A DNA stretch of 64,000 nucleotides from Alphaproteobacteria bacterium. Lineage in GTDB: Bacteria > Pseudomonadota > Alphaproteobacteria > MPNO01. The position numbers and the translations under genes are program-made. This document shows, piece after piece, positions 891-9,111 of this stretch. How positions within the stretch are numbered: position 1 is the first letter of the stretch; each line of letters opens with the position of its first letter. Below the pieces are notes generated by a model, which ran no database searches, was not told the origin of the DNA, and saw nothing but the letters and a program-made list of their open reading frames with translations. The stretch is from positions 1,408,001 to 1,472,000 of the forward strand of contig OZ219866.1 of assembly GCA_964291675.2 (NCBI GenBank). Reading direction: 5' to 3'.

Positions 891-1014
891 GCGTGCCGGC
901 GCCGATCATTCATATCAAATTCGCATGTTATGATGACTTTTCGGTGTGGCTGGTCTATGGATGACGGGGCCGGCTCGCCGGCGGATGCGCCACGACCGCG
1001 AGAGAGGACGAGAG

Positions 1015-4000
1015 ATGGGACGGATGCTTTTCGGCAACACCGCGGACGCGACGGGCGGCGGGCGCCGCCCCTCCCCGGCCTGGCTCGCGCCGCTGCTGGT
1101 CCTCGCCCTCTGGGCGGCGGACGCGAAGGCGCAGACGGTCGCGCTGGTCGGCAATGTGGGGCAGTCCGGGACCGAGGGCGTCAGCCTCGGCGTCTGGGAC
1201 CTTGCCCAGAAGTTCACGACCGGAACGAACAGCGCCGGCTACGACCTGACCAGCGTCGAAGTACATCTGTTCACCAACGCCAACCTGGGTACCGACACCG
1301 CCGCCCCCCGGGTGCGCGTGGTCCGCGGGGCGGCGACGGGAACCGGCTCGGAGCCGGTCGCGACGCTGACCGCCGCGACGACGACGCTACCTGCCACCGC
1401 GCGGGCCAACTACACGTATACGGCGCCTACGCCGCCGCAGGGCATCGTGCTGCGCGCGTCGACCGACTACTGGGTGGTGGTCGAAGCAGCCTCCAGCGGC
1501 GGCGGCGACGTACACTTCTTCAACACCAATTCGAATGCGGAGGACGGCACCCCCGCGGCGGGCTGGAGCATCGACGATAGCGGGTTGCAACGAGCACACG
1601 ATTCGACCGGTGGCTTCGGCGCGGAAGATCGCGCCTACATGATCCGCGTCAACGGCAGCGTCAGGACCAACGTCCCCGCCACCGGCAAGCCGACGATCAC
1701 GGGCGTCGCGACCGTGGGCCGCCTGCTGCAGGCGAGCCGGGGCACCATCACGGACACCGAGGGGCTGCCCGCCGCGTTCGACTATCAGTGGATCCGGGTC
1801 GACGGGGCGACCGAGACCGACATCCAGGGCGCGGACTCGTCCACCTACCGGCTGGTCGACGCCGATGAGGGCAAGACGGTCAAGGTGAGGATGTCCTTCA
1901 CCGACCTTCGGGGCGGCATGGAATCGCGCACCAGCGACGCGTTTCCGTCGAGCGGGACCGTCCAGGCCGCGCCCGTCATCGTCGGCGGTCTCCATGTGAC
2001 CAATCTGGGGCAGGCCCGGGGCGGCGCCGACACTTTCGACCGGTTCGATGCCGCCCAGAAGTTCACCACCGGCACCAACGCCGGCGGCTACACGCTGAGC
2101 AGCGTCGACCTGCGGCTGGAGGTCGCCTCTCCCAATGTCTCGCACCCCGCGGTGAAGGTGGTCAAGGGGGCGCCGGCGGGCGAGGACTCGGAGGATGTCG
2201 CCACGCTCACCCCCCGGAGCAGGAACTTGATTGCGCATGCGGCCAACTTCGCCAGCTTCGGCGCGCCGCCGGGCATCAGGCTGGACCCGTCGACCGACTA
2301 CTGGGTGGTGGTCGAACGCAGCGGCGGCGACGCCATCCATCTGGCCTTGTCGGTCACCGCGTCGGATGCGGAGGACGGCAGCTCCGCGGCGGACTGGAGC
2401 ATCGCCGACACGGCCTTGTGGCGGGCCGCCGACTCCACCGGCGCGTTCGAGCGGAGGGTTCGCGGCGTGTCCTACATGATCCGCGTCGACGCCGTCGCCG
2501 GGGCCGCCGCCGGCGCGCCGACCGCCGCCGACGGCTCGGTGCGCACCCGCCCGGACACCGCGTACGCCTTCAGGGTGGACGATTTCGGCTATTCCGATCC
2601 CGACGGCGACGCGCTGGCGAGCGTGAAGATCGAGACCCTGCCCGCCTCCGGCAAGGGCGCGCTGACCCTCGACGGCAACGCCGTCGCCGCGGGGCAGGAC
2701 GTCGCCCGCGGCGACATCGAGGCGGGCGACCTGCAATACGCGCCGCCGGCGGGCGAGGCGGGCGAGGACTTCGCGAGCTTCACCTTCCGGGTGAACGACG
2801 GCACCGCCGACAGCGCGAACGCCGCCACCATGACCGTCCATGTCTCGACCGTCCAGGTCGAGAACGCGCCGCCGGTCGCCGCCGACGGCTCGGTGCGCAC
2901 CCGCCCGGACACCGGGTACGCCTTCAGGGTGGGCGATTTCGGCTATTCCGATCCCGACGGCGACGCGCTGGCGAGCGTGAAGATCGAGACCCTGCCCGCC
3001 TCCGGCAGGGGCACGCTGACGCTCGACGGCAGCGCCGTCACCGCGGGGCAGGCCGTCGCCCGCAGCGACATCGAGCTGGGCCGGCTGGAATACGCGCCGC
3101 CGGCGGGCGCGGCGGGCGAGAACCTGGCGAGCTTCACCTTCCGGGTGAGCGACGGCACCGCCGACAGCGCGAACGCCTACACCATGACCGTCCATGTCTC
3201 GACCGTCCGGGTCGAGAACGCGCCGCCGGTCGCCGCCGACGGCTCGGTGCGCATCGGCGCCGACGCCGAGTACGCCTTCAGGACGGGCGATTTCGGCTAT
3301 TCCGATGCCGACGGCGACGCGCTGGCGAACGTGAAGATCGAGACCCTGCCCGCTTCCGGCAGGGGCACGCTGACGCTCGGCGGCAGCGCCGTCGCGGCGG
3401 GGCAGGCCGTCGCCCGCAGCGACATCGAGGCGGGCAACCTGCGATACGCGCCGCCGGCGGGCGCGGCGGGCGAGGACTTCGCGAGCTTCACCTTCCGGGT
3501 GAGCGACGGGACCGTCGACAGCGCGGACGCCTACACCATGACCGTCCATGTCGGCAACCGGGCGCCGGTCGCCGCCGACGGCTCGGTGCGGATCGGCGCG
3601 GACACCGAATACGCCTTCAAGGTGGGCGATTTCGGCTATTCCGATGCCGACGGCGACGCGCTTGCCGGGATCGCGATCCGCACGCTGGCCGGCCTGCCGG
3701 CGGGAAGCGCGCTGCGGCTCGACGGCGCGCCGGTGAGGCCGGGCCAGGCCGTGACCCGGGCGCAGCTCGAGGCGGGCGGTCTGGTGTTCGTCCCGGAAGC
3801 GGGCGGGACGGGCAGCCCCTACGCGACGTTCTCCTTTACCGTGAGCGACGGGTTCGCGGACAGCGCGCCGGCCACGATGCGCGTCCATGTCGTCGGGCCG
3901 GGCGGCGAGCGGGCGGTCGGCGCCTGGGTGTCGCGCTTCGGGCGCACGGTGGCGGACCAGGTCGTGGCCGCGGTCGAGGGAAGGATGCGCGCCGCGCGGC

Positions 4001-5319
4001 GGCCGCAGGCGGAGGTGAGCCTCGCCGGCGGGCGGATCGGCCTGTTGCCGCCCCCGGGCGACGCCCGGGCGCCGGATCCCGGGGCGGAGCCCGCGCGGGC
4101 CGGCGCGACCCGGACCATGAGCGGCGGCGAGCTGCTGCTGGGCTCGTCCTTCGCGCTGACCGGCGCGGCGGCGGATGGCGGCTCGGCCGCGTTCTGGGGC
4201 GGCGCCGCGGTAACCCGCTTCGACGGGCGCGAGGACGGGCTCGCGGTCGACGGCGAGGTGACCGGCGCCATGCTGGGCGCCGACTGGCAGCGGGGAAGCT
4301 GGACCACCGGGCTCGTGGTCGCGCACAGCCAGGGCGAGGGCGGCTACCGCGAGGGCGGCGGCGGCGCGGCGCGCGGCTCCGTCGAGGCGACGCTGACCGG
4401 GCTCTACCCCTGGCTGCGGCTTGCGCCGGACGACCGGCTGGAGGCCTGGGGCGCGGCGGGCTACGGCGCCGGCGGGCTGCGGCTGGTGCCGGACGGCGGG
4501 GCGGCGACCCGCACCGACCTCGCCGCCTGGATGGCGGCGGCGGGGCTGCGCGGGGCGCTGCTCGACCCGGGCGGCGCGGGGCTGAGGCTGACCGCGAGGA
4601 CGGACGCCCTGTTCGCCGGCGCGTCGACCGACGCGGCGGGCTCGGGCGCCGGCCGGCTGGCGGCGGTCGAGGCCAGGGTCGCGCGGCTGCGGCTCGGGCT
4701 GGAGGGGGCGCTGCCGATGCGCCTCGGGCCGGGCTCGGCGCTGACGCCGGGGTTCGAGCTCGGCGCGCGCCATGACGGCGGCGACGCCGAGACCGGGCTC
4801 GGGGCGGATATCGGCGCGAGCCTCGCCTGGACCGACGCCGGGAGGGGGCTCTCGATGGAGCTCAGCGGGCGCGGGCTGCTGTCCCACAAGGCGAAGGGAT
4901 TCCGCGAGCGCGGCGTGTCGGCCGTCCTCCTGTGGCAGCCCGGGACGGACGCGCGCGGGCCGCGCCTCAGCCTCGCCCAGAGCCTCGGCGGCGCGTCGGC
5001 GGGCGGCGCCGCGGCGCTGCTCGGACGGACCACGCCGGCGACGCTCGCCAACCCCGGCGGGGGGGAGCTGAAGCGCCGCCGGCTGGAGGCGCGGCTGGGC
5101 TACGGCTTCGCCGCCTTCGGCAGCCGCTTCACCCTCACGCCGGAGGCCGGGTTCGGGCTGTCGCAGGCGGCGCGCGACTACAGGATCGGCTGGCGCCTGG
5201 CGCGGCGCCCCGGGCCGGGGCCCGGCTCGGCCGAGCTCTCCCTCGACGCGCGCCGCCGCGAGAGCGCCGCCGCGCCGCCGGTGCACGAGGGCAGGGTCCG
5301 GCTGACGGCGCGGTTCTGA
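1015..5319 (+). CDS. Large surface adhesin / autotransporter-like protein
   Basis: Signal peptide (..ALWAADAKAQ); two N-terminal AQKFTTGTN..YWVVVE domains; four cadherin/Ig-like repeats; C-terminal beta-barrel ending in F (LTARF). Start is uncertain (946/1015/1024). Confidence 0.85.
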   Translation: MGRMLFGNTADATGGGRRPSPAWLAPLLVLALWAADAKAQTVALVGNVGQSGTEGVSLGVWDLAQKFTTGTNSAGYDLTSVEVHLFTNANLGTDTAAPRVRVVRGAATGTGSEPVATLTAATTTLPATARANYTYTAPTPPQGIVLRASTDYWVVVEAASSGGGDVHFFNTNSNAEDGTPAAGWSIDDSGLQRAHDSTGGFGAEDRAYMIRVNGSVRTNVPATGKPTITGVATVGRLLQASRGTITDTEGLPAAFDYQWIRVDGATETDIQGADSSTYRLVDADEGKTVKVRMSFTDLRGGMESRTSDAFPSSGTVQAAPVIVGGLHVTNLGQARGGADTFDRFDAAQKFTTGTNAGGYTLSSVDLRLEVASPNVSHPAVKVVKGAPAGEDSEDVATLTPRSRNLIAHAANFASFGAPPGIRLDPSTDYWVVVERSGGDAIHLALSVTASDAEDGSSAADWSIADTALWRAADSTGAFERRVRGVSYMIRVDAVAGAAAGAPTAADGSVRTRPDTAYAFRVDDFGYSDPDGDALASVKIETLPASGKGALTLDGNAVAAGQDVARGDIEAGDLQYAPPAGEAGEDFASFTFRVNDGTADSANAATMTVHVSTVQVENAPPVAADGSVRTRPDTGYAFRVGDFGYSDPDGDALASVKIETLPASGRGTLTLDGSAVTAGQAVARSDIELGRLEYAPPAGAAGENLASFTFRVSDGTADSANAYTMTVHVSTVRVENAPPVAADGSVRIGADAEYAFRTGDFGYSDADGDALANVKIETLPASGRGTLTLGGSAVAAGQAVARSDIEAGNLRYAPPAGAAGEDFASFTFRVSDGTVDSADAYTMTVHVGNRAPVAADGSVRIGADTEYAFKVGDFGYSDADGDALAGIAIRTLAGLPAGSALRLDGAPVRPGQAVTRAQLEAGGLVFVPEAGGTGSPYATFSFTVSDGFADSAPATMRVHVVGPGGERAVGAWVSRFGRTVADQVVAAVEGRMRAARRPQAEVSLAGGRIGLLPPPGDARAPDPGAEPARAGATRTMSGGELLLGSSFALTGAAADGGSAAFWGGAAVTRFDGREDGLAVDGEVTGAMLGADWQRGSWTTGLVVAHSQGEGGYREGGGGAARGSVEATLTGLYPWLRLAPDDRLEAWGAAGYGAGGLRLVPDGGAATRTDLAAWMAAAGLRGALLDPGGAGLRLTARTDALFAGASTDAAGSGAGRLAAVEARVARLRLGLEGALPMRLGPGSALTPGFELGARHDGGDAETGLGADIGASLAWTDAGRGLSMELSGRGLLSHKAKGFRERGVSAVLLWQPGTDARGPRLSLAQSLGGASAGGAAALLGRTTPATLANPGGGELKRRRLEARLGYGFAAFGSRFTLTPEAGFGLSQAARDYRIGWRLARRPGPGPGSAELSLDARRRESAAAPPVHEGRVRLTARF
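2524..3890 (+). repeat. Four intragenic tandem Ig/cadherin-like repeats
   Basis: GCCGCCGACGGCTCGGTG unit starts at 2524, 2878, 3232 and 3571 (periods 354, 354, 339 bp). Confidence 0.9.
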
Positions 5320-5327
5320 CCGTCGGC

Positions 5328-5436
5328 CGTCCTGCGATACGGCGCTACGCGCCTGCCCGGGATGAGGGCGGGGTCGAGCGGTCCGGGAAACTCCCCTCAT
5401 CCCGGGCAGCGCCCGCGGGGCGCGTATCGCGGGACG
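5328..5436. repeat. Palindromic REP-like element, family 2
   Basis: CGATACGGCGCTACGCGCCTGCCCGGGATGAGG ... CCTCATCCCGGGCAGCG..GCGTATCG; a related copy lies at 57218-57330. Confidence 0.8.
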
Positions 5437-5974
5437 CCGGCCGGTAAAACCCCTGCGCCTCGACCAGGAACGCGCGGTTGAGCCGGGCGCGGTAGTTCTC
5501 CATCGCCGCGGTGGCGGCGAGCTCGACGAGCTGGGCCTCGGAGAAGTGCGTCGCCGCCTCCGCGTAGACCGCGTCCGGCACCTCGGCCGGGGTTTGCGTG
5601 ATTCCCTCGGCGACGGCGAAGGCGGCCTTCTCGGCGGCGTCGAACAGGTCGCTGTCGCGCCAGGCGGCGACGGCGGCGATCTTCTCGTCGGTGCTTCCGG
5701 CGGCGCTGCTCCCGGCAGCGTTGGTGTCGATTCAGAACGGGCACTGGACGATCTGCGCGACGCGGACGCAGATCAGGTAGCGCAGATCGGCCGGCAGGGT
5801 GCCGCTGCGGGAAGGTGCCGCGCCGAGGATTTGCCCCGCCTTGAGGATCGGCGGGCAGCGCGCCTGGATTCCGGCGGTCGTCGTCGGCGCGCCCAACGCG
5901 CGGGCGGCCCGGTCCATCGCCTCGCGCGCCTCCCCGGGCGCCTCGTCGCGGGCCAGCGGCTTCAGTCTCGGCAT
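5345..5974 (-). CDS. AhpD/carboxymuconolactone decarboxylase-family protein, probable selenoprotein (CxxU)
   Basis: ORFs 5732..5974 and 5345..5581 are in one frame separated only by TGA (5734-5732) in C-P-F-U, where the family has CxxC. CMD-like sequence continues after the TGA, and a SECIS-like hairpin follows. Confidence 0.85.
5704..5720 (-). promoter_or_regulatory. Putative bacterial SECIS element
   Basis: mRNA: UGA + 11 nt + CGCUGC-CGGGA-GCAGCG (6-bp stem, G as second loop base). Confidence 0.7.
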
Positions 5975-6125
5975 GGCGGTCCCCCTCGCGGATGGCGGGG
6001 AGGATGGTAGAGCCCATGCGTCGTGGATGGAACCGCGGCCGCCCTTCGATAGGGGCTTATATGGATGGGTTGACGGGCGGTCGGCTGGCGCAGACCGCCG
6101 ACGGGAACGCCGCCCCGCCCCACCC

Positions 6126-6147
6126 CGTCATGCCCGGACTTGATCCG
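6126..6147. repeat. Left half of a family-1 REP arm split by the IS
   Basis: CGTCATGCCCGGACTTGATCCG; continues as CGGGCACCCA at 7524-7533; partner arm at 7585-7614. Confidence 0.9.
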
Positions 6148-6179
6148 TCTATGGACGCCCCCGGCGGTGCAAGGTTTTT

Positions 6180-6370
6180 TTCGAACGGTTCGGACAGTGC
6201 GGTCAGGTGCTGTCGTCTATGCGGCCTCTGCTTGCGGCCTGTGTGGCGCCGCGGGCCTGTATGGCATACGCGGATCGGGTCCAAATCGGGCACGCGTGCT
6301 CTTCGGCGCGCCGGATCAAGCTGGTTTTCCCGATCCCGTCTCATCGACCGTTTGTCCTTACCCGTCCTCA
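6180..6370 (-). ncRNA. Putative bridge/seek RNA of the IS1111 element (ends approximate)
   Basis: Target guides at 6311-6320 and 6287-6293 lie inside stem 6272-6279/6329-6336; donor guide at 6213-6221. Confidence 0.8.
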
Positions 6371-6412
6371 GACCTCGCCCGCACTGCCGACGGCGGCCCG
6401 CATCCGCCGCGC

Positions 6413-7444
6413 TCAGGCGGTGTTCGGCGCGGGCGCCCGGTAGCTCTGCTGTCTCGTGGTCATCGCCCAGGCGATGCGCGCGGTGCGGTTGGCCAGCGCC
6501 ACGGCGATCAGCTTCTTCGGCTTCCTGGTGGCCAGCATCCCGGCCAGCCACGGGTCGCGCACCGTGTCGTGGCGCCCGGCGCTGCGGACCACCGACATGG
6601 CGCCGAGCACCAGGAGCCGCCTGAGATCGCGCTGGCCCATCTTCGATATCCTGCCCAGCCGCGGCTTGCCGGCCGTCGTGTGCTGGCGCGGCACCAGCCC
6701 GAGCCAGGCCGAGAAGTCGCGCCCGCGGCGGAACCCGTCGAGCGGCGGCGCGAAGGCCTGGATCGCCATCGCGGTGACCGGCCCGACCCCCGGTATGGTC
6801 ATCAGCCGGCGCGCATCCGCATCCCGCCGCGCCTCGGCGCGCAGCTCCTTGTCGAGCTCGGCGACCTGTTCGTCCAGCCCGGCGATCTGCTCCAGCAGCA
6901 CCCCGGCGAGCTCGCCCACCCGGTCCGGCAGACCGGCCCGCGCAGCCTCCAGCGCCACCGCGAGCTTGCCGACACTCGCCGGACCCTTCGGCGCCACCAG
7001 CCCGAACTCCGCCAGATGGCCGCGCAGCGCGTCGAGCGCCTGGGTGCGCTGGCGCACCAGGAGATCGCGCACCCGGAACAGCATGCCGCGGCTCTGCTGC
7101 TCGGCCGTCTTCACCGCAACCAGGCTCATGGTCGGCCGCGACGCCGCCTCGCAGATCGCCGCCGCATCCGCCGCATCGTTCTTCTGGCGCTTCACGAAGG
7201 GCTTCACATAGACCGGCGGCACCAGCCGCACCTCATGGCCCAGATCGAGGATCTCGCGACCCCAGTGATGCGCGCCCCCGCACGCCTCCATCGCCACCAC
7301 GCAGCGCGGCTGACGCGCCAGAAAGGCGAGCAGCCTGCCGCGGCTCAGCGTCCGGCGGAAACCCACCGAGCCGTCCGCGCACATCCCGTGCAGCTGAAAA
7401 CTCCGCTTCGAAAGATCGATCCCGATCATGCTAACCTCGGCCAT
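6413..7444 (-). CDS. IS110-family DEDD recombinase/transposase (343 aa)
   Basis: GIDLSK, AMEACG and KNDAADA (DEDD motifs); TIPGVG; QHTTAGK loop; RBS GGAGG. Confidence 0.95.
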   Translation of the reverse strand: MAEVSMIGIDLSKRSFQLHGMCADGSVGFRRTLSRGRLLAFLARQPRCVVAMEACGGAHHWGREILDLGHEVRLVPPVYVKPFVKRQKNDAADAAAICEAASRPTMSLVAVKTAEQQSRGMLFRVRDLLVRQRTQALDALRGHLAEFGLVAPKGPASVGKLAVALEAARAGLPDRVGELAGVLLEQIAGLDEQVAELDKELRAEARRDADARRLMTIPGVGPVTAMAIQAFAPPLDGFRRGRDFSAWLGLVPRQHTTAGKPRLGRISKMGQRDLRRLLVLGAMSVVRSAGRHDTVRDPWLAGMLATRKPKKLIAVALANRTARIAWAMTTRQQSYRAPAPNTA

Positions 7445-7737
7445 GGATGCTCCCTCCTCCAAGTGGGTTGATGACACCGCCACTTTGGCACACAGATGCC
7501 GTCGGAGGGGGCGTCCACTCCATCGGGCACCCACTGGCGCCGCCGCCCCTCTCGTCGGACCGTCGTGCGGGCGGAGAGGCCGCGTGGATGGCCGGATCAA
7601 GTCCGGCCATGACGTAGGGGTGACAGCGGGAGCGGAGATGCAGATGCTCACGGGCGCGGAGCCCGCGTCGAAGGCTAAACCGGACAGCAGTGGAACAAGT
7701 CCGGCCATGACGGCTTGGCGGAATGGACCGACCCGGC

Positions 7738-8505
7738 CTAGATCGCCCGGTAGCCGCCGTCGGCCATGACGATGCCGCCGGTGACGTAGCCGGCGAGGTC
7801 GGAGGCGAGGAAGATGGCGGGGCCCACGATGTCCTCGGGCTTGCCGGTGCGCCCGAGCGGGGTGTGGTCGAGGAAGAGTTTTACGAGCTCCGGGTTGCGC
7901 GCCCGGGCGGCGGCGTTCAGCGGGGTCTCGATCAGCCCGGGGCCGATCGCGTTGACCCGCACCCCGTCCTTGCCGAGCTCGGCGGCGAGCGCGCGGGTGA
8001 AGCCGAGCACGCCGTGCTTGGAGGTGGTGTAGGCGATGCTGTTGGGCGTCCTGACATGCAGGAAGGACTGGATCGAGCCGATATTGACCACCCGCCCGCG
8101 ATTGGCGCGGAGCTGGCCGAGGAAGGCCCGGGTGACGTTGAACACGCCGTCGAGGTTGACCCGCATGATGTCGTCCCAATCGCCCGCCACCGCCGCTGCA
8201 TCGCCGGTGACCGGGTTGCGCCGGTTGATGCCGGCGTTGTTGACCAGGATCGAGATCTCGCCGATGGAGCCGGCGATGTCCGCGGCGGCCGCCACGCAGG
8301 CGGCGCGGTCGCGCACGTCGAGCGTCATCGCATGCGCGGCGTGTCCGGCCCCGGCGATCTCGTCCCGCACCGCTTGCGCCGCCGCGCCGTCGATGTCGAG
8401 CACGACCACCTCGGCGCCCTGATCCGCATAGCCCAGCGCGATCGCGCGGCCGATCCCGGAAGCGCCGCCGGTGACCGCGGCGCGGTGTCCTTCGAGCAGG
8501 TTCAT
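7738..8505 (-). CDS. Short-chain dehydrogenase/reductase
   Basis: TGGASGIG, NNAG, YTTSK. Confidence 0.9.
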   Translation of the reverse strand: MNLLEGHRAAVTGGASGIGRAIALGYADQGAEVVVLDIDGAAAQAVRDEIAGAGHAAHAMTLDVRDRAACVAAAADIAGSIGEISILVNNAGINRRNPVTGDAAAVAGDWDDIMRVNLDGVFNVTRAFLGQLRANRGRVVNIGSIQSFLHVRTPNSIAYTTSKHGVLGFTRALAAELGKDGVRVNAIGPGLIETPLNAAARARNPELVKLFLDHTPLGRTGKPEDIVGPAIFLASDLAGYVTGGIVMADGGYRAI

Positions 8506-8556: not shown

Positions 8557-9111
8557 TCACCCGCGCGGCGGCGGTACGGCGGCGACTGCCGCAGCCGCCC
8601 AGTCCGGAAGAACTTCTGCGGTCCACCATGTCCCGGCCATGAATATGGCAACCTCGCGGTGGGGCAAGTCCGGGTCGGTGTTGTCGTAAAGCAAGACCTC
8701 GTCGGCCCGCGCAATCGCGACAGGGAGGTTCTCCAGCGATCGCGCAAATCGCCGCCGCACGTCCGATTCCGGAACGTCATGGCCGCCGAGCGCGACCCGA
8801 TTGCGGATGCGGTCGAGTGACTGGTCGGGGGATTCGACACACACATAATGCAGAACGACGCGATAACCGGCGCTTCGTGCCGTCTCCATGAGACGTAGGG
8901 GGCCGGAACCGGCGAGAGTGGTCTCGACCGCGAGTGTTCGGCCTTCCGCGATCGCCGTCCGCCGGCGCCTCAACGCTTCGCGGCCCGCCGCGCCGGGGGC
9001 GTCGGCCAAGGCGTCGGGATCGATCACCTCTACCCCGTGGAACCACCGGGTGCGCGTCAGGGTCGATTTTCCGCACCCGTTCGGTCCGGCGACGACAACG
9101 AGCGTCGGCAC
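8557..9111 (-). CDS. Zeta-toxin-like P-loop ATPase/kinase (COG4185-type)
   Basis: AGPNGCGKST, ETTL, RIRNRVALGGHDVP, LYDN. Confidence 0.8.
   Translation of the reverse strand: MPTLVVVAGPNGCGKSTLTRTRWFHGVEVIDPDALADAPGAAGREALRRRRTAIAEGRTLAVETTLAGSGPLRLMETARSAGYRVVLHYVCVESPDQSLDRIRNRVALGGHDVPESDVRRRFARSLENLPVAIARADEVLLYDNTDPDLPHREVAIFMAGTWWTAEVLPDWAAAAVAAVPPPRG

Follow-up and report, generated by a model that had tools for sequence, protein, structure and literature searches.

What is carried in the non-coding region that follows the transposase gene of an insertion sequence, and does that region specify where the element inserts? The question is raised by a 1376-bp element of the IS1111 group found at positions 7523 to 6148, on the minus strand, of the 64,000-nucleotide stretch of DNA analysed here (the window). 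The original prediction was that the 265 nt downstream of the transposase gene constitute a readable bridge or seek RNA, programmed against a repeated palindrome of the host. Comparisons with other copies in the genome, with relatives and with published systems indicate, on sequence grounds, that the region 3' of the gene encodes a functional guide RNA, a reading to which a probability of roughly 0.9 is assigned. The locus is an additional example of an IS1111-type seekRNA/bridge RNA system, the mechanism of which was first described in 2024; no new mechanism is involved.

The element, its copies and its target

The ends of the element were set by an alignment of four copies and by comparison with the empty 14-mer target. 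The left end reads GTGCC-CG followed by ATGGAGTGGACGCCCC, beginning at 7523, and the right end reads GGGGCGTCCATAGA, terminating at 6148 and followed by CG-GATCAAG, which in the four-copy alignment continues onward as CG-GATCAAGTCCGGGCATGAC. These positions, taken from aligned copies with identical ends, thus define an element of 1376 bp with CG on either side (7524-7525 and 6146-6147). When window positions 6100-7600 were compared with the genome, four full-length copies were recovered (98-100% identity), together with about 100 short matches to the two flanks that come from a REP-like repeat family. Target position and orientation are the same in all four copies, and CG alone stands on both sides with no added duplication; the CG core that had been predicted is present in 4/4 copies.

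Sub-terminal inverted repeats, TGGACGCCCC on the left (7508-7517) and GGGGCGTCCA on the right (6152-6161), pair at 10 of 10 positions and are kept in relatives. Outside them lie a left extension of 6 nt, ATGGAG (7523-7518), and a right extension of 4 nt, TAGA (6151-6148), all on the minus strand. The non-coding sequence measures 265 nt downstream of the transposase gene vs 79 nt upstream. Sub-terminal repeats with short extensions, a longer downstream non-coding region and site and orientation specificity are traits of the IS1111 group, and all are found here.

The transposase/recombinase gene (6413-7444, minus strand) encodes 343 amino acids. Its assignment as an IS110/IS1111 recombinase, proposed initially from the letters alone, is upheld by Pfam domains PF01548 (48 bits vs a cut-off of 29) and PF02371 (79 bits vs 21.3) and by the NCBIfam model NF033542, 'IS110 family RNA-guided transposase' (319 bits vs a cut-off of 140), as well as by the sub-terminal repeats and the long 3' non-coding region. 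Identity to transposases of the IS4321/IS5075 family is 39-40% over 98% of the length, these being the IS1111-type proteins compared. In a search of the PDB, the matches were ISCro4 (9t56) and IS621 (8wt6) only. The DEDD residues D10, E53, D90 and D93 align with D11, E60, D102 and D105 of IS621; among 31 aligned homologues, D10, E53 and D90 are invariant and D93 is conserved in at least 90%. The element is very probably an intact and recently active insertion sequence of the IS1111 group. Its intactness had been predicted, and the open reading frame is in fact unbroken in all four copies, with one amino-acid difference across the four.

What is the target? Flank and end, read at both sides, give the empty site GTGCCCGGATCAAG, i.e. 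GTGCC-CG-GATCAAG, which is the reverse complement of the CTTGATC-CG-GGCAC reconstructed in the original prediction. That reconstruction agrees with the four-copy ends and with 67 occurrences of the exact 14-mer in the genome; the central 12-mer occurs 123 times. The host REP target is therefore present in at least 71 copies (67 empty and 4 occupied). Within the window the 14-mer occurs four times (317-330, 413-426, 647-660 and 757-770) vs 0.05 expected by chance. At the element itself, the left half of the interrupted target (GTGCC and CG) is read from the flank at 7524-7530, and the right half (CG and GATCAAG), at 6139-6147, extends into the hairpin's 3' arm (both on the minus strand). An uninterrupted REP copy folds into a 9-bp stem with a 5-nt loop, and the insertion point is in the 5' arm, adjoining the loop. 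The target consists of the 5' arm and loop of the host REP hairpin.

Several features of the surroundings may be mentioned. The four intact 14-bp targets in the window, with a one-mismatch variant (388-401), form a REP-like cluster at 280-820, in both orientations, which represents potential additional insertion sites less than 6 kb from the element. A 1457-aa open reading frame (946-5319, plus strand), in which bacterial Ig and cadherin-like domains recur (Big_9, Cadherin_3/4/5), probably encodes a large surface or adhesion protein. Two short consecutive reading frames on the minus strand (5732-5974 and 5345-5581), just downstream of the element and with no Pfam match, may be one frameshifted gene. 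On the other side, a 184-aa reading frame (8557-9111, minus strand) with weak matches to AAA_33 (31 bits) and Zeta_toxin (28 bits) lies upstream of a short-chain dehydrogenase gene (7738-8505). Elsewhere in the genome, a diverged second relative of the transposase gene (G000:C2:1586610-1586936) shows 67% nucleotide identity over 327 nt. Words of the element (6148-7523) also occur in two coded sequencing runs labelled sponge metagenome (X2 and X3, shares 0.40 and 0.24), the best apart from the probable source run; some contigs of X2 are identical to the element, and the sponge label hints at the habitat of the host.

Structure and guides of the predicted RNA

A consensus fold was obtained with RNAalifold from 45 non-redundant regions. 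Six helices were retained, and one more, located in the right inverted repeat, was omitted. The six helices comprise 29 pairs, which are standard pairs in 97.2% of cases over the 45 sequences, and in 16 of the 29 both partners change. The observed values are reached in none of 500 shuffles, and 3' partners slid by 1-3 columns pair at 21-46%. By this fold, the RNA forms a three-way junction of approximately 151 nt, the predicted core of a bridge RNA or long seekRNA (6200-6350; this and all RNA features below are on the minus strand). A long-range helix, P1, closes it (6345-6348 paired with 6202-6205; the pairing can be extended to 6350/6200), and in P1 the columns 96/255 and 99/252 covary between GC, AU and GU pairs.

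The target-binding arm (6272-6336) consists of P2 and P3, an internal loop in which the two target guides lie, and a hairpin at the distal end (6296-6309). P2 (6329-6336 with 6272-6279; GGATCGGG/CCCGATCC) is paired at 8/8 positions, with both-side changes in 7/8 pairs; P3 (6321-6324 with 6281-6284) has them in 2/4 pairs and the stem of the distal hairpin (6306-6309 with 6296-6299) in 3/4. In the window copy, one pair of this hairpin between the guides (139/151) is a C·A mismatch. The distal stem of the donor module (6223-6257 in the consensus fold) is formed by P5, GGCC/GGCC (6254-6257 with 6223-6226), which is 100% paired in the 45 sequences and never varies, and P6, GCGGC/GCCGC (6248-6252 with 6234-6238), also 100% paired, with two pairs that change on both sides. 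In the modelled structure, the target arm holds both guides in one internal loop, and the donor guides are in the junction strands flanking P5-P6.

The fold of the single sequence is uninformative at 69% G+C (z = -1.34, 15 of 200 shuffles being as stable). Its minimum-energy form retains P2 yet pairs the two guides with each other, as is expected with a palindromic target. A search of 5800-7900 against Rfam produced two unrelated hits that fell far short of their gathering scores, with nothing in 6148-6412; no Rfam 15 model fits the region.

Where are the guides? The 5' target guide, CUUGAUCCGG (CTTGATCCGG as DNA), at 6311-6320, is complementary to the top-strand sequence CC-GGATCAAG, which is the core and right flank. 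The 3' target guide, GUGCCCG, is identical to the left flank and core and would thus pair with the bottom strand. Together with the next AU, it spans 6285-6293; as GUGCCCGAU, it matches 9 nt of the junction between left flank and element (7530-7522), vs 7 nt of the empty site. The additional AU match could represent a handshake-type contact or have a role in excision. The right-end donor guide, CAUAGACGA (CATAGACGA as DNA), at 6213-6221 between P5 and P1, corresponds to the final 6 nt of the element, then CG and the first left-end base. A weak left-end donor guide, CCAU (6264-6261), is located in the junction strand 6258-6271, where relatives have CUCCAU. Remapped by script in the minus-strand reading, the segments named in the original prediction are all correctly placed: CTTGATCCGG at 6320-6311, GTGCCCG at 6293-6287, the stem at 6336-6329/6279-6272, CATAGACGA at 6221-6213 and CCAT at 6264-6261. 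The short left-end match was also anticipated, and 4 nt is right for this copy; in relatives it is usually 6 nt.

If these segments are guides, they should change with the flanks in other elements, a check that the original prediction itself had proposed. An alignment of 31 of the 120 listed homologues (A1) was used to fetch 80 loci from species-representative genomes, with protein identities of 54-75%. Of the resulting 81 elements (80 loci and the window), 62 have a sub-terminal repeat pair (at least 9/10) and a recognizable left end, and 53 of these have the same dinucleotide, CG, TG or AG, on both sides; the other 28 elements were excluded ahead of counting. The non-coding regions of the 53 align well, with a conserved scaffold and two variable blocks where the target halves sit.

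The outcome is strongly positive. In a fixed register, applied to the 47 elements with long enough flanks (46 non-redundant), the match to an element's own flanks is 4.26 of 7 and 4.11 of 5 positions, vs 1.77 and 1.40 with the flanks of other elements, and none of 10000 permutations reaches the observed sum. Several of the poor cases were alignment shifts of 1-2 columns, and the comparison was repeated with a tolerance of ±2 nt, controls being treated equally (44 non-redundant elements, 43 targets). Guide 1 then matches at 7/9 or more positions in 34/44 elements (3.6% of mismatched pairs) and guide 2 at 6/7 or more in 33/44 (1.8% of mismatched pairs). Both guides pass in 25/44, with 0/2000 permutations reaching the observed sum; the 19 elements under one or both thresholds include 10 with guide 1 below 7/9 and 11 with guide 2 below 6/7. 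The right-end donor guide likewise matches its own last five right-end bases and core at 7/8 or more positions in 23/24 non-redundant relatives and tracks 12 end/core combinations, including switches between CG, TG and AG (permutations 0/10000). Covariation of the left-end guide is weak, the observed match being reached in 471/10000 permutations; changes in two relatives (L061 and L076) look compensatory and are single cases. The anatomy of the locus, its copy number and site specificity, and the covariation of guides with flanks and within the RNA structure are established by these comparisons.

Proposed mechanism and alternative readings

How would such an element work? The 265-nt 3' non-coding region would encode a bridge RNA, equivalent to the 'long seekRNA' of Siddiquee et al. 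P1 would close the RNA, and the P2-P3 arm would open into an internal loop, whose 5' side, CUUGAUCCGG, would pair with the top strand of the target (core and right flank) and whose 3' side, GUGCCCG, with the bottom strand (left flank and core). The donor would be read by CAUAGACGA for the right end, CG and the first left-end base, and weakly by CCAU for the left end. If IS621 is taken as the model, a tetramer of the recombinase would bind the target through one module of the RNA and the circularized element through the other, and strands would be exchanged at the CG core, with Thr257 in the role of the IS621 nucleophile Ser241. Production and processing of the RNA, protein binding, the chemistry of Thr257 and transcription from the circle junction are steps that one would infer in this scheme.

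The nucleophile loop deserves comment. The original prediction drew attention to Thr in place of Ser in QHTTAGK. The second T of this motif does align with S241 of IS621, the residue that forms the 5'-phosphoserine link: in GLVPRQHTTAGK, T257 (T257-A258 being encoded at 6676-6671) corresponds to S241 and A258 to G242. In sequence alignment, the predicted loop G--P----S(t)G thus has Thr in place of Ser, followed by Ala in place of Gly. The substitution is not special, however. Thr is at this position in 119 of the 120 closest homologues (the next residue being Ala in 21 and Gly in 99) and in an IS4321-family transposase, with the motif QYSTGG, and IS1111 transposases are described as having 'SG or TG (or occasionally TA)' (Siddiquee 2024). 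For this group, then, the Thr is genuine but unremarkable, and its interpretation as an unusual feature is ruled out. Neither phosphothreonine nor 'threonine nucleophile' occurs among the matches listed for the IS110/'bridge recombinase' literature. The chemistry at Thr thus appears unexamined in the literature searched.

Could the clade be a mechanistic variant of bridge recombination, one that combines a fixed Thr nucleophile, asymmetric reading of the donor and an RNA that acts in trans? This is a tentative reading, with the odds against it. A fixed Thr, here followed by an Ala that replaces the Gly contacting D102 in the IS621 structure (G242), would imply a 5'-phosphothreonine intermediate. 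As to the donor, the right end and core would be read by a covarying guide of 7-9 nt and the left end by 4-6 almost invariant nt, with the protein presumably contributing by recognizing the sub-terminal repeat.

Action in trans is raised by differences among the four copies. Two copies form a sub-lineage: they share three substitutions in the transposase gene, one of which alters an amino acid (L42V), along with an additional A and the loss of 18 nt. The deletion (6288-6271) removes the 3' strands of P2 and P3 and keeps GUGCCCG; the reading frames of both copies (G000:C2:1391795-1393153, locus L004, and G000:C2:2996734-2998092, locus L003) are intact. Their flanks are alike within repeat units only (right side, approximately 185 nt; left side, approximately 95 nt) and unrelated beyond, and the copies thus represent two separate loci. 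They may have moved with RNA supplied in trans by intact copies, or the deletion may have spread by gene conversion. The copies also differ at 6320, where the 5' guide starts: the window copy alone has C, and the other three have T. All 67 empty sites have G opposite this position, so the T copies would form a U·G wobble.

An unlikely alternative to a bispecific RNA is that only the target arm (6272-6336, the short seekRNA) guides, and that the donor matches are by-products of conserved ends, the protein itself reading the sub-terminal repeats. For ISEc11, the short seekRNA, which is the target arm only, was reported as sufficient for transposition, with the role of the long form left open (Siddiquee 2024), and the donor module may thus be dispensable. 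The 4-nt left-end match of this element, with its weak covariation, fits such a view, and because element ends vary little, shared ancestry can mimic covariation. It is harder to reconcile with the behaviour of the right-end guide, which follows the ends through core switches in nearly all relatives, or with P1, which encloses both modules and has two covarying pairs; donor-binding nucleotides are also described in the multi-loops of IS1111 orthologues (Durrant 2024).

Less likely still is that the four copies are relics, i.e. that the element is immobile and its RNA no longer made, a fossil of a once-functional system. The 18-nt RNA deletion in two of the four copies is in keeping with decay, and the linear element contains no sigma-70-like promoter or intrinsic terminator in a scan of 6050-7650. 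The absence of a promoter from the linear element neither supports nor refutes expression, as a junction promoter is invisible in the linear form, and junction promoters are documented for the IS1111 family (Siddiquee 2024; Pares-Guillen 2025), such that a promoter is expected on the circle junction only. A -35-like hexamer is in place: TTGCAC at 6167-6172 (minus strand) starts 25 nt before the right end, and circularization would put it 17 nt upstream of a -10-like GA-CG-AT made of right end, core and left end. Among relatives, a TTG hexamer is found at the same distance from the right end in 33 of 48 distinct elements; on a circle junction, it would be followed by a 17-nt spacer and xA-core-AT in 30 of these 33. 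In two metatranscriptome runs of one study (X21 and X22), short contigs cover parts of 6261-6408 at a depth of 3-34, some from diverged relatives; such contigs cannot show strand, ends or transcription, and they give no firm evidence of the RNA and no verdict on expression. Against decay stand the four intact reading frames that differ at one amino acid, the 98-100% identity of copies at four loci and the perfect match that persists between guides and target.

A captured piece of REP, or chance, without any guide function, is refuted as the source of the guide matches. The target is a highly repeated palindrome and the 5' guide resembles REP variants (e.g. 7593-7584), but of 20000 sequences simulated from the 265-nt region with a first-order Markov model, 12 contain the 9-mer target guide, 924 the 7-mer and 17 the 9-mer donor guide; the two target guides occur together in 1. 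Nor can REP capture explain why homologues with 43 unrelated targets have the sequences of their own flanks at these two positions of the RNA.

Known systems and significance

The position of the RNA, the order of the matches, its length and the donor nucleotides in the multi-loop agree with published descriptions of the family. According to Siddiquee (2024), the IS1111 RNA lies downstream of the gene for the transposase, the match to the top strand is 5' of that to the bottom strand, and there are long (145-170 nt) and short (70-100 nt) forms; in many IS1111 orthologues, donor-binding nucleotides are located in a multi-loop (Durrant 2024). The clade may already be covered by Supplementary Table 5 of Durrant or the supplementary folds of Siddiquee.

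Among known elements, ISPa11 (IS1111 family, Pseudomonas aeruginosa) offers a close parallel. It also inserts at a specific position in a REP sequence and has a seekRNA downstream of the transposase gene with two target matches, that to the top strand coming first (Siddiquee 2024), and it is one of six elements for which target and donor pairing are drawn by Durrant (2024). The host, REP sequence and guides differ, as compared by description; the ISPa11 RNA was sequenced from purified protein, whereas the window element is known from sequence alone. ISEc11 (IS1111 family, E. coli) has the same layout, with an essential 3' non-coding region and RNAs of approximately 154 and 82 nt; a junction promoter and no duplication beyond the shared bases are reported for it as well (Siddiquee 2024). 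Its target, GTGAAAATACTG, is no REP, and it has been reprogrammed experimentally.

IS621 and ISCro4, of the IS110 group (PDB 8wt6 and 9t56), share the DEDD and Tnp domains, an aligned nucleophile loop and a bispecific RNA that reads both target and donor strands around a 2-nt core. Insertion into REP is reported for IS621 too, in the title of Choi (2003). Protein similarity to the window element is recognizable mainly in the Tnp domain (E values of 1e-10 to 9e-13). Unlike the RNA described here, that of IS621/ISCro4 is upstream of the gene, forms two serial stem-loops and has the order of strand matches reversed; in addition, these elements have Ser-Gly instead of Thr-Ala, a CT instead of a CG core, and are without long sub-terminal repeats. 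IS4321/IS5075, founding members of the IS1111 family with sub-terminal repeats, are related over the full length of the transposase and have Thr at the nucleophile position; they differ in the Gly that follows Thr and in their targets, which Partridge and Hall (2003) name in their title as terminal repeats of Tn21-family transposons. ISPpu10 of Pseudomonas putida inserts into a repeated intergenic stem-loop sequence, and the stem-loop is the reported second determinant of specificity besides RNA pairing (bioRxiv 10.64898/2026.03.19.712850). By comparison, the window element inserts within the 5' arm of the hairpin itself.

What, then, does the finding add? No new principle emerges, as RNA-guided IS1111/IS110 recombination, REP targeting, Thr in the nucleophile loop and a donor module of the multi-loop type have each been published already. 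The deletion copy provides a natural RNA-defective form with which action in trans can be probed, and Thr-Ala is an active-site variant on offer. The 44 non-redundant relatives constitute a natural reprogramming series, with one RNA scaffold, one protein clade, 43 targets and three cores (CG, TG and AG). The series shows which positions of the RNA are freely variable and points to guide lengths of approximately 5+2 and 7+2 nt. It could help to engineer recombinases of the IS1111 type, which are less studied than IS621.
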